Source of the DNA: a virus
Taxonomy: Duplodnaviria > Heunggongvirae > Uroviricota > Caudoviricetes
IMG/VR virus record: IMGVR_UViG_2675903536_000005
Length of the DNA: 6,166 nucleotides
Strand: one strand, 5' to 3'
Shown here one piece after another: positions 1-5,417 of the stretch. Under the pieces are notes generated by a model. It worked only from the letters and a program-made list of their open reading frames with translations. It was not told the origin of the DNA and ran no database searches. Within the stretch, counting starts at the first letter, position 1; each line of letters begins with the position of its first letter. Position numbers and translations under genes: made by a program.

Positions 1-130
1 CAGGCTTCACTTTAAAGTACGGCGGGTCCGTGACTATCAGGTCAACAGAATTTTCGGGTAACGACCGGATAAATTCCAGGCAGTCGGCGTTGATTAATTC
101 ACGACTGGATATTTTTACAGTATTAAACAT
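1..130 (-). CDS. DNA methyltransferase, beta-class amino-MTase (N6-adenine or N4-cytosine), N-terminal 43 codons only; gene continues beyond window start
   Basis: Minus-strand ATG at 130-128, first in-frame start after upstream stops. Translation MFNTVKISSRELINADCLEFIRSLPENSVDLIVTDPPYFKVKP carries the DPPY catalytic motif near the N-terminus, the order typical of beta-class MTases (CcrM/M.HinfI-like N-terminus by recall). Absent from the ORF track because it is truncated at the window edge. Weak SD. Confidence 0.8.
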   Translation of the reverse strand, partial: MFNTVKISSRELINADCLEFIRSLPENSVDLIVTDPPYFKVKP

Positions 131-3720: not shown

Positions 3721-4536
3721 TCAATGAACGGTATCGAGCAGCTTTAACAGCTCAGGGAATCGGGATTCGAAGAAATGCGGCTGCGTCTCGCGCGGATTTG
3801 CAGGACTGGTGATGTTCTTGCCGAACATGCAGCCTTTCGCGGTCAGCGACCAGAATTTTTTGATGTTGTTAATCGCGGTACGACTGTATCGTTCGCGTTG
3901 TTCAACGATCCCCAGCTTCGCCATCTGGTGATATGCCTGATTAGCCGTCAGGCGGATACCATACTGCTTCAGCAGTGCACTCAGCGACAGCGTAGGGCGG
4001 CTTGAACCATCTGGCGCATCAGCAGGTGCATCAATGGCATAGATCGGCATAAGTTCAGGAAGACCAGCTACCTTTGATAATTTCTGGTATGCACCAAGTT
4101 TCGAGGAGTTTGACAGATTTAGAGTCTTTGCTGCTGATTCAAGCAGAATGACCCCGGATTTAATTTTGTCGGATGTGGTTTCTTCTGGTGATGAATTATG
4201 AAGCGCATCAAAAGTACGTATCACTTTTAAGCTGAATGCCGGGCTGATCCACATTGCATATGCATAGACCAGCTCTTTACAGACATACGTCCCACCATTG
4301 CGCCCCTGAATGGTGATGACAGGAATACTACGGGAATCTCCCGTAGTTTCTTCTTCCAATAATTCCACAAGAGCCTTCGTTTCAGGACGACGCATAAACT
4401 CGTGAACTTCCAGCGAACGGGAGGAGCGATTCTCACCAGCGGCAAGAAGAGCAGCTTTCTGAAGGTCGTTAAGACAGTAGTTAGATTCGAAGTACTGGCG
4501 CACAGAAACGCCATCAATTACAAGCAACTGATTCAT
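3721..4536 (-). CDS. KilA-N domain protein with KilAC-like C-terminal domain (putative phage antirepressor)
   Basis: ATG 4536 with SD GGAG 6 nt upstream (track ORF starts 4 codons earlier at GTG). N-terminal region has the KilA-N signature (ITIQGRNGGTYVCKELVYAYAMWISPAFSLKVIRTFDAL); C-terminal part (LSALLKQYGIRLT...KKFWSLTAKG) resembles Ant/KilAC C-domains by recall. Confidence 0.75.
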   Translation of the reverse strand: MNQLLVIDGVSVRQYFESNYCLNDLQKAALLAAGENRSSRSLEVHEFMRRPETKALVELLEEETTGDSRSIPVITIQGRNGGTYVCKELVYAYAMWISPAFSLKVIRTFDALHNSSPEETTSDKIKSGVILLESAAKTLNLSNSSKLGAYQKLSKVAGLPELMPIYAIDAPADAPDGSSRPTLSLSALLKQYGIRLTANQAYHQMAKLGIVEQRERYSRTAINNIKKFWSLTAKGCMFGKNITSPANPRETQPHFFESRFPELLKLLDTVH

Positions 4537-4633
4537 TGGTTTCTCCACAAATTTTTATCCACGAGCGGGACTGCACTCCCTTTTCGTTGATGCAGGATGA
4601 ACTTACTGCGATTTTTAATAGTTATCAAGGATA

Positions 4634-4653
4634 CACTGTTCATAAATACAGTA
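4634..4653. promoter_or_regulatory. LexA (SOS) box, CTGT-N8-ACAG, in the intergenic region upstream of the KilA-N antirepressor gene
   Basis: caCTGTtcataaatACAGta at 4634-4653 matches the E. coli SOS-box consensus taCTGT(at)4ACAGta in both half-sites with an AT-rich spacer. It lies about 100 bp upstream of ATG 4536, adjacent to candidate minus-strand promoter elements (TTGATA 4628-4623, TAAGTT 4605-4600). Confidence 0.6.
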
Positions 4654-4698
4654 TCTTTAACGAGGTAATACCCAAATTTAGGGTGTTGCTCAATTCCG

Positions 4699-5094
4699 TT
4701 ACCGAGTTGCTAATTTGCAACTCGCTTTTTCGTACTTACTGATAGTGATCTCGACCTTCCCCTCCGGGATAACCGGTCCCCACTCCACCAGCATTCTTTT
4801 CACCTGACTGTCGTCTTCCCACACACCCGCGTGGGTCAGGGCGTCAAACAGCGCCTTGTTATAGTTGTCCAGATCACGGATCCGGTTATCCGGAGGAAAC
4901 AACACGATCTCCACTGAAGCAGGTGCCGACGTTGGTTTTGGCAGACGACGTAACTGCTCAACTATTGCTGCACACGCCGCGCTCTGGAATTTTCGCCCCG
5001 CCGCGCTTATCAGGCTCTTACCAGCAAACGCCCCTTTGTTGGGGTGTCGCCAGTACGTGTTCACGCTGGGCGGAAAAGGCAGGATCAGCTTCAT
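4699..5094 (-). CDS. rusA: RusA-family Holliday junction resolvase (crossover junction endodeoxyribonuclease)
   Basis: 131-aa product aligns by eye to E. coli RusA: PFPPSVNTYWRH (RusA LPWPPSNNRYYRH), RDLDNYNKALFDALTHAGVWEDDSQV (RusA [26 protein letters not shown]). Start ATG overlaps the upstream stop (ATGA). About 7 residues longer at the C-terminus than canonical RusA. Confidence 0.9.
   Translation of the reverse strand: MKLILPFPPSVNTYWRHPNKGAFAGKSLISAAGRKFQSAACAAIVEQLRRLPKPTSAPASVEIVLFPPDNRIRDLDNYNKALFDALTHAGVWEDDSQVKRMLVEWGPVIPEGKVEITISKYEKASCKLATR
4703..4730 (+). terminator. Terminator-like hairpin plus T5 in plus-strand orientation, embedded in the 3' end of rusA
   Basis: 8-bp stem cgagttgc(4703-4710)/gcaactcg(4717-4724), 6-nt loop, followed on the plus strand by cTTTTTcg (4725-4732). 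It overlaps the last 8 codons of the minus-strand rusA ORF. No plus-strand gene is evident, so function is uncertain. Confidence 0.3.
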
Positions 5095-5417
5095 ACTTTC
5101 AGGCCTCTCTCATGTAACCAATGGGCTGCACGCAGCCTGGCGTTTTCCTCACCGGCAAGCAGTGAGCGGATAATCCCGACCGCCTCGCTGTCGTCGTCCT
5201 TCACCACGGTATGAAGCGTGATCCCCCGGGCCACACCACGCTTTATCGTGATGACGCCTTTTTTCTCCAGTGCGCGAAGATGCTCCACCGCTGCATTCAC
5301 TGAACGGTATCCCAGCATGGTTGCCACCTCCTGATTGGTTGGCGGGAAGCCACGTTCTTTCTGATAAGAAATCAGCATATCCAGCACCTGCTGCTGGCAT
5401 TGAGTTAACGTCGTCAT
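5091..5417 (-). CDS. LexA N-terminal DNA-binding-domain-like protein (108 aa), lacking the S24 peptidase domain
   Basis: QQQVLDMLISYQKERGFPPTNQEVATMLGYRSVNAAVEHLRALEKKGVITIKRGVARGITL parallels LexA residues about 5-70 ([62 protein letters not shown]), including the recognition helix S-x-NAA-x-EHL. The ORF ends after 108 aa with no Ser/Lys protease domain. ATGA start/stop overlaps on both sides. Confidence 0.8.
   Translation of the reverse strand: MTTLTQCQQQVLDMLISYQKERGFPPTNQEVATMLGYRSVNAAVEHLRALEKKGVITIKRGVARGITLHTVVKDDDSEAVGIIRSLLAGEENARLRAAHWLHERGLKV

Follow-up and report, generated by a model that had tools for sequence, protein, structure and literature searches.

A predicted LexA operator at a candidate internal promoter between rusA and kilA-N in the late-control region of a lambdoid prophage

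The DNA considered here is a stretch of 6,166 nucleotides from the Caudoviricetes record IMGVR_UViG_2675903536_000005, referred to throughout as the window. Open reading frames (ORFs) combined with Pfam and PHROGs matches identified it as the nin/late-control region of a lambdoid prophage, with all relevant genes on the minus strand. The interval between rusA and a gene encoding a KilA-N domain protein (kilA-N) carries a site resembling the operators of LexA, the repressor of the SOS response, and the original prediction for this DNA was a LexA-controlled antirepressor gene. The results reported below are most consistent, at a probability of roughly 0.6, with a host LexA operator at an internal sigma-70 promoter between rusA and kilA-N in the nin region of a subset of lambdoid prophages. 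The genes for KilA-N, a DUF968/HNH-like protein and the antiterminator Q would then probably be switched on by DNA damage. The features of the locus are as follows.

6100-5414, minus strand: phage Dam-type methyltransferase gene
5417-5091, minus strand: gene for a LexA DNA-binding-domain-only protein of 108 residues (PF01726, E = 2.9e-19; no protease domain)
5094-4699, minus strand: rusA, its last codons forming the palindrome 4724-4703 and its stop codon at 4701-4699
Between rusA and kilA-N: gap of 162 nt
4675-4670 and 4653-4648, minus strand: alternative upstream promoter candidate TTGGGT-16-TACTGT, its -10 being the left half of the box
4634-4653: LexA (SOS) box, TACTGTATTTATGAACAGTG on the minus strand and CACTGTTCATAAATACAGTA on the plus strand; heterology index (HI) 5.6; sole perfect CTGT-N8-ACAG
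4628-4623, minus strand: candidate -35 TTGATA of a promoter designated P_kil, beginning 5 nt downstream of the box
4605-4600, minus strand: candidate -10 TAAGTT, with a start inferred near 4593 that would place the box at about -60 to -41
4586-4562, minus strand: hairpin CGA..GGGA[GTGCAG]TCCC..TCG in the 5' untranslated region (UTR), between promoter and Shine-Dalgarno sequence, with a conserved loop and a covarying stem
4546-4543, minus strand: kilA-N Shine-Dalgarno sequence GGAG; orthologues keep 'gtGGAG'
4536-3721, minus strand: kilA-N, 271 residues, with an N-terminal KilA-N/APSES-like DNA-binding domain and a C-terminal domain of no assigned function
3719-2724, minus strand: DUF968/HNH-like gene, 1 nt past the kilA-N stop
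2721-2344, minus strand: Q antiterminator gene, 2 nt past the DUF968 stop

The LexA box and its recurrence upstream of kilA-N

The E. coli LexA box is an imperfect 20-bp palindrome, TACTG(TA)5CAGTA, with an invariant CTG...CAG at 10-bp spacing and an A/T-rich centre. The sequence TACTGTATTTATGAACAGTG conforms to this consensus with four mismatches to the 20-mer, all at weakly conserved positions; a search of the window with the consensus TACTGTATATATATACAGTA and three mismatches allowed gave no match because the site has four. The 20-mer caCTGTtcataaatACAGta at 4634-4653 had been predicted to contain the only perfect CTGT-N8-ACAG of the window, and this was borne out by a match at 4636-4651 and at no other position. 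The rarity of this bare 8-base pattern is only borderline, with 0.06 matches expected and at least one found in 11 of 200 shuffles. The 18 E. coli LexA boxes given in PMC3009722 served to rebuild a Lewis-type HI. On this matrix the 20-mer scored 5.6, inside the range of known boxes (0.3-9.3; leave-one-out up to 12.8), among which recA scores 5.2 and uvrD 5.7. An HI of 5.6 was reached by approximately 1 in 1000 dinucleotide shuffles of the window, for which about 0.001 such sites are expected, and an HI of 8 was reached by none of 5000 shuffles of the intergenic stretch. Three sites of the window have an HI of 7 or less (4634-4653; 103-122, HI 5.7; 1033-1052, HI 7.0) versus 0.004 expected. In SfIV and another E. 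coli the box is present as a G-to-A variant, TACTGTATTTATGAACAGTA, with an HI of 4.5. By these scores the site at 4634-4653 is a real LexA box of good predicted affinity and recA-like quality. A LexA box in a prophage is, as a bare fact, ordinary. For LexA boxes in prophages, see PSOSP (PMC12527982).

Orthologues of kilA-N were gathered, taking a single genome of each species as well as viral contigs, and their upstream regions were scanned by HI. In Klebsiella-like contigs, Erwinia, Edwardsiella, Serratia, Rahnella and Gilliamella, LexA-type boxes recur ahead of orthologues with only 49-66% protein identity, whose upstream DNA cannot otherwise be aligned. The frequency expected from shuffles is about 0.0005 such boxes per 200-nt upstream region. 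The recurring boxes are listed by locus group or genus.

L216/L221 group: AACTGT(T/A)(C/T)AAACATACAGGT (AACTGT..ACAGGT), HI 6.5-9.9
L236: AGCTGTATAGATGCACAGTA, HI 8.4
L237/L249 group: HI 8.3-9.4
Erwinia: GATTGTATATTTATACAGTC, HI 7.1-9.1
Edwardsiella: GGCTGTTTTAATATCCAGTA, HI 5.7
Serratia/L213: HI 9.7-11.1
Gilliamella L044: TAATGTATATATTAACAGTG, HI 7.1

Positions 3721-5417 of the window are 99.6% identical to Escherichia phage PhiR49_1 and 98.9% identical to Shigella phage SfIV, and positions 4400-4850 are identical in E. coli O104:H4 prophages. Among viral contigs, 45 have a kilA-N allele that is 99-100% identical, and each of them carries the box. The intergenic stretch (150 nt) was found in 186 of 5426 complete E. 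coli genomes (~3%), outbreak O104:H4 strains among them; since 178 of these 186 stretches are at least 99% identical, phylogenetic footprinting within E. coli is uninformative.

The start codon of kilA-N is the ATG at 4536 and not the GTG at 4548, so that the intergenic region, thought to measure 150 bp, is 162 nt long. Nor is it obligatory that this region hold the kilA-N promoter, as had been supposed. In most relatives (Stx2a_1447, SfII, ST64B and prophages of Proteus and Morganella) kilA-N begins 16-45 nt after rusA with no box between them, indicating that the gene is there simply part of the PR operon. The long-gap and short-gap alleles are identical up to the last rusA codons and then diverge, which places a mosaic breakpoint at the 3' end of rusA and indicates that the long gap travels with this kilA-N allele. 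The left part of the window has its best match in E. coli SMBL, which has the short-gap allele. A direct repeat flanks the extra ~135 nt of the long-gap allele at approximately 4742-4728 and 4607-4581 on the minus strand, one copy being cAGTAAGTaCGAAAA at the rusA end and the other cAGTAAGTtC...CGAAAA ahead of the hairpin; the segment containing box and promoter may thus have arisen by duplication or insertion.

The candidate promoter and the 5'-UTR hairpin

A comparison of upstream regions anchored on the hairpin revealed, in many lineages with differing spacers, a TTGnnn-17-TAnnnT motif located 24-28 nt ahead of the hairpin loop, and the boxes always lie beside or on this promoter-like motif. 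The box is 4-5 nt upstream of the -35 in Escherichia and Klebsiella-like lineages, and the -10 lies inside the box in Erwinia (TTGCCC-17-TATATT) and Serratia/L213 (TTGCCT-17-TAGTTT). A box across the -10 is the classical geometry of LexA repression. The occurrence of two box positions at one promoter argues for selection for LexA control of that promoter. The alternative candidate TTGGGT-16-TACTGT is not conserved outside the E. coli/Shigella allele.

A terminator scan of positions 4400-4800 gave a single terminator-like site, located on the plus strand at the 3' end of rusA, and no convincing minus-strand terminator was found between 4600 and 2344. Given the gaps of 1-2 nt between kilA-N, DUF968 and Q and the lack of a good terminator, P_kil would probably also feed DUF968 and Q. 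The palindrome at 4703-4724 (GCGAGTTGC-aaatta-GCAACTCG) forms the final codons of this rusA allele and has a T-run on the plus strand only, hence it looks like a terminator for transcription in the opposite direction.

An equivalent of the 5'-UTR hairpin, with an NTGCAG loop of which TGCAG is invariant, was found in nearly all kilA-N orthologues; Proteus, Morganella and Providencia have the hairpin with the other loops TGTACGG, TATACGG and ATGCGG. The hairpin is present even in the short-gap Stx/SfII alleles, overlapping the stop codon of rusA there and encoding the C-terminus of RusA (ggcggGTGCAGccgcc). Pairing was retained in 91% of cells of the comparison, a percentage inflated by preselection of the sequences for at least four flanking pairs, which does not inflate the diversity of pair types. 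There were 34 double-change cells and all five pairs were changed on both sides (21 distinct sequences). None of 500 shuffles reached the observed value, and slid controls paired at 29-52%. The G:U pairs on the sense strand favour an RNA element of the kilA-N mRNA. The single-sequence fold of the 5' UTR is not significant (z = -1.2), and Rfam gave no match for the hairpin or anywhere else in the window. An intrinsic terminator was rejected as an explanation of the hairpin, there being no T-run on the sense strand and one on the antisense strand in some lineages only. A palindromic DNA operator is less likely in view of the variable arms, the invariant asymmetric centre and the restriction of G:U pairs to the sense strand. 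A variant with an 11-nt deletion just past the hairpin (tcccgaaatttgtggag) occurs in L087, L123, L126 and related viral contigs; the outer stem is lost, and the box and promoter are unchanged.

LexA control and the alternative explanations

The features described above suggest the following sequence of events. In a healthy lysogen, LexA would hold P_kil down. Bound at about -60 to -41 next to the -35, it would block contacts of the RNA polymerase alpha-CTD with the UP element of a weak core promoter; alternatively, the box would act through its overlap with the -10 of the upstream promoter candidate. DNA damage would lead to self-cleavage of LexA, and P_kil would fire independently of the prophage PR promoter. 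The transcript would begin with the conserved stem-loop, followed by KilA-N and very probably by the DUF968/HNH protein and Q. The original proposal of LexA control over kilA-N is well supported in silico by the recA-like box, its recurrence in diverged orthologues and the conserved sigma-70-like motif. If LexA does gate the promoter of kilA-N, DUF968 and Q, these prophages would receive the DNA-damage signal twice, through self-cleavage of CI and by a direct LexA route towards the late-gene antiterminator. In related Stx phages Q controls toxin release. With the module present in ~3% of complete E. coli genomes, the prediction is easy to test in available strains.

Several points weigh against this interpretation. 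The P_kil hexamers are weak (8/12), and a sigma-70 scanner with a 9/12 threshold reported no promoter in positions 4400-4800; the promoter is proposed instead on the basis of conservation across lineages. In the present allele the box precedes the -35, and a box overlapping the -10 or +1 is more usual for LexA repression. The control is dispensable, since box and promoter are missing from most relatives, Stx and SfII phages among them. Recurrence inside the Escherichia/Klebsiella group partly reflects shared ancestry, the boxes being at a homologous position, and in several members of that group the homologous bases are the last rusA codons and the box is degenerate (HI 11-17). The HI matrix was rebuilt from 18 sites and is not the original matrix of Lewis et al. 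Finally, the host would be endangered if SOS drove Q expression in a prophage that is not induced, and read-through to Q may therefore be limited.

The same prophage type contains further LexA boxes inside coding regions.

103-122, minus strand: second LexA box, near-consensus, TACTGTAAAAATATCCAGTC, HI 5.7, in codons 3-9 of an N6/N4 DNA methyltransferase gene cut by the left end of the window
L006:17305-17324 (O104:H4 cI gene 17096-17788) and L167:29704: cI-linker box, HI 2.1, very strong

The methyltransferase box was also found at L166:6176, L009:6156, L017:5951, L036:5460, L138:6561 and L006:7696. Its codon position is unchanged in E. coli alleles, Kluyvera, Rosenbergiella and Providencia, although the encoded residues differ (NTVKISS, NTVKINS, STVNLNS), which suggests selection on the DNA element and not on the protein. 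In the O104:H4 and SMBL prophages, the part of cI that encodes the linker between the helix-turn-helix (HTH) and Peptidase_S24 domains contains TACTGTATGTAAAAACAGTA (HI 2.1), and the box-carrying cI allele is present in 678 of 5426 E. coli genomes. A TTTACC-17-TACTGT sequence upstream of the cI-linker box could be an internal promoter. The third site of the window, TACTGTATTAAAAAACATTA at 1033-1052 on the plus strand (HI 7.0), has a perfect left half-site and CAT instead of the invariant CAG; it lies inside an A+T-rich plus-strand ORF (740-1768), is also present in L091, L095 and L167, and is probably weak or non-functional.

The gene at 5417-5091, which where present sits next to rusA, raises the question of which protein would occupy these boxes. 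The 108-residue product belongs to the PHROGs family phrog_362 and matches PF01726 over residues 1-65 with no S24 match; like a truncated LexA, it has the winged helix and lacks the catalytic/dimerisation domain. It aligns to residues 2-86 of E. coli LexA, ends 18 residues later and is ~50% identical over residues 2-69. It also retains 'LAGE' (A-G-E), aligned with the A84-G85 cleavage site of LexA, without the catalytic domain. Its recognition-helix stretch is RSVNAAVEHL (LexA: RSPNAAEEHL), and it has the ARGI wing motif; these stretches carry the DNA contacts. The near-identical recognition-helix stretch suggests that the phage protein could bind the same boxes. The box might then be wholly or also the operator of this truncated homologue. 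Expressed early from PR, the phage protein would take over from cleaved host LexA at this promoter and at the prophage's other boxes, either as an uncleavable repressor or as an activator beside the -35 in the manner of GIL01 gp6, thereby setting the timing of kilA-N/Q expression. This explanation is unlikely, though it has several points in its favour besides the sequence identity. The N-terminal domains of LexA form a dimer interface on the operator (PMC3159453). The position of the box, centred near -50 next to a weak promoter, would be suitable for an activator, and GIL01 gp6, itself a truncated LexA homologue, activates from a site overlapping the -35 (PMC6182141). The strong boxes in cI and the methyltransferase gene would offer further sites. 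However, the phage protein has no evident dimerisation domain, and gene and box do not co-vary: Stx2a_1447 and SfII have the gene without the box, and Erwinia and Edwardsiella have the box without the gene in the flank. Since these last two lineages keep the box without the phage gene, host LexA is the simplest and most economical candidate binder, with the phage protein a live, non-exclusive alternative. Apart from GIL01, a literature search on KilA-N with LexA or antirepressors and on truncated LexA proteins encoded by coliphages yielded nothing but unrelated work, and none on the 108-residue protein.

A wider proposal, which we put forward only tentatively, is that this widespread E. coli/Shigella family of lambdoid prophages, Stx-converting and O104:H4 ones among them, runs a small LexA-box regulon of its own composed of the kilA-N-DUF968-Q promoter, the cI linker and codons 3-9 of the late-region methyltransferase gene. 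Host LexA would read the boxes before induction and the uncleavable phage LexA-domain protein after it, and the hand-over would time Q, late-gene (toxin) expression and cI shut-off.

As for the product of kilA-N, its N-terminal 110 residues match PF04383 (E = 1.3e-15) and are predicted to adopt an APSES-like fold, which assigns the protein to the KilA-N family. It is 37% identical to residues 4-109 of P1 KilA, and a structure search matched the predicted N-terminal fold to APSES/Mbp1, Bqt4 and a baculovirus KilA-N domain. The predicted C-terminal domain had no match among solved structures, residues 113-271 (the C-terminal 159) no Pfam match even at E = 10, and the protein no sequence match in the PDB. 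The gene order rusA-kilA-N-DUF968-Q is kept across Enterobacterales, with the DUF968/HNH-like gene directly 3' of kilA-N in nearly all loci (L007-L259) and Q usually next; this constant pairing suggests that the KilA-N and DUF968/HNH-like proteins work together.

The antirepressor function originally ascribed to the product, by which it would bind and inactivate the repressor of its own or a co-resident prophage in the manner of Tum, AntC and GfoA/GftA, found no support here and is quite unlikely. The placement is that of an antirepressor gene, in the nin region between rusA and Q, outside the immunity region and with a predicted LexA operator; a box at a dedicated promoter outside the immunity region is the layout of Tum, AntC and Gifsy (PMC3121763). 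Weak support at the level of annotation comes from residues ~93-267, a part also present in Bro-N and Rha phage proteins and in a Ruminococcus phage protein annotated 'antirepressor', and P1/P7 KilA is annotated as an anti-repressor in some records, but that match is limited to the KilA-N part. The protein has none of the ANT/KilAC, AntA/B or Tum/DinI-like domains; the KilA-N/KilAC make-up that had been predicted was reduced by Pfam to KilA-N only. Its predicted fold is that of an APSES-like DNA-binding domain. At 271 residues it is much larger than the characterised LexA-controlled antirepressors, which are small (Tum 146 residues, GfoA/GftA about half of that; PMC3121763). The Gifsy repressors targeted by such antirepressors are not cleaved (PMC3121763). 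The repressor at issue here, judged on the O104:H4 prophage with an identical module (the window is without an immunity region), is a cI product with HTH and Peptidase_S24 domains, thus of the self-cleaving lambda-CI type that needs no antirepressor. In addition, most members of the conserved rusA-kilA-N-DUF968-Q block are without a LexA box, and the literature search found no paper tying KilA-N proteins of this family to antirepression. For KilA-N, the likeliest role is that of a DNA-binding regulator, antirepression being no more than a proposed one.

The location of the box inside the PR operon and upstream of Q would also fit a roadblock, in which no promoter of its own matters and LexA bound between rusA and kilA-N stops PR transcription towards Q, delaying late-gene expression upon infection in healthy but not in damaged cells. 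The boxes in the cI linker and methyltransferase codons 3-9, where a promoter is less obvious, would accord with such a role. The conserved TTGnnn-17-TAnnnT next to the box argues instead for a promoter, as does the classical -10 overlap in Erwinia and Serratia, and no precedent for a LexA roadblock was retrieved. This mode of action is highly improbable. That the box is a chance or decaying sequence without function, as the bare-pattern statistics and the degenerate homologous position in several relatives could suggest, is scarcely credible given the shuffle frequency of the full 20-mer score and the independent recurrence of good boxes in at least five lineages.

Outside the rusA-Q block, two plus-strand ORFs of 342 and 191 residues lie within 740-2351, opposite to their neighbours, in an island of 33% G+C between Q and the late promoter region. 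The second looks membrane-associated; neither has a Pfam match, and PHROGs gave only the families phrog_9879 and phrog_8257 of unknown function. The segment looks like a moron or defence-like cassette, and its place is taken by other alleles in O104:H4, Stx2a_1447 and SfII. Two strong intrinsic terminators are present on the minus (gene) strand at 606-626 and 278-295. The former, AAACCCGCCGCGAGCGGGTTT followed by a T-run, is at the place expected of the lambdoid tR' after PR', with a weak LexA-like match immediately upstream (701-720, HI 10.2).

Comparison with known LexA-controlled and KilA-N systems

Coliphage 186 Tum and N15 AntC are LexA-repressed antirepressors. The present locus resembles theirs in that a prophage gene has its own promoter with a LexA operator, both being predicted here. 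It differs in that no homology was detected (by Pfam, KilA-N only) and in the size and domain make-up of the product. The N-terminal 110 residues of the KilA-N protein are like P1 KilA and the fungal APSES domains, whereas its C-terminal half is unrelated to KilAC/ANT and is common instead to some Bro-N and Rha phage proteins.

The site is probably a functional LexA operator at a conserved candidate internal promoter, for which the closest known counterpart is the LexA-controlled dinI-antirepressor (gfoA/gftA/gfhA) locus of Gifsy-1, -2 and -3 in Salmonella (Lemire et al. 2011). There, a LexA box with its own promoter is located 1.3 kb downstream of the replication genes with a palindrome ahead (PMC3121763). 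The two loci have in common a box with a promoter (a candidate one here) in the right-arm early region of a lambdoid prophage, past the replication genes and outside the immunity region (PMC3121763), the palindrome ahead of the box and, as predicted here, an SOS input through LexA and not only through repressor cleavage. However, the Gifsy locus encodes a DinI homologue together with a small antirepressor, and the repressors of the Gifsy prophages are uncleaved, whereas the present locus, known from sequence alone, encodes a 271-residue KilA-N protein followed by DUF968 and Q in phages with an S24-domain repressor.

A second parallel is GIL01, in which gp6, a truncated LexA homologue, activates the late promoter P3 (Fornelos et al. 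2018, PMC6182141). Both phages encode a LexA DNA-binding domain without the cleavage/dimerisation domain, and both have LexA-type boxes at a promoter, a candidate one in the present phage, that governs or would govern passage to the late genes, host LexA acting on the same promoter in GIL01. In contrast to the present phage, GIL01 is a Gram-positive tectivirus without a CI-type repressor, and gp6 has its site across the -35, distinct from the LexA boxes; binding by the 108-residue protein is hypothetical here, and its gene and the box do not co-vary. Should the tentatively proposed LexA-box regulon exist, the LexA/gp6 switch of GIL01 would have in it a Gram-negative counterpart that contains CI. 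Boxes inside the repressor and methyltransferase genes, a protease-less LexA paralogue and a covarying 5'-UTR hairpin could make up a layer of regulation not yet described for lambdoid phages.

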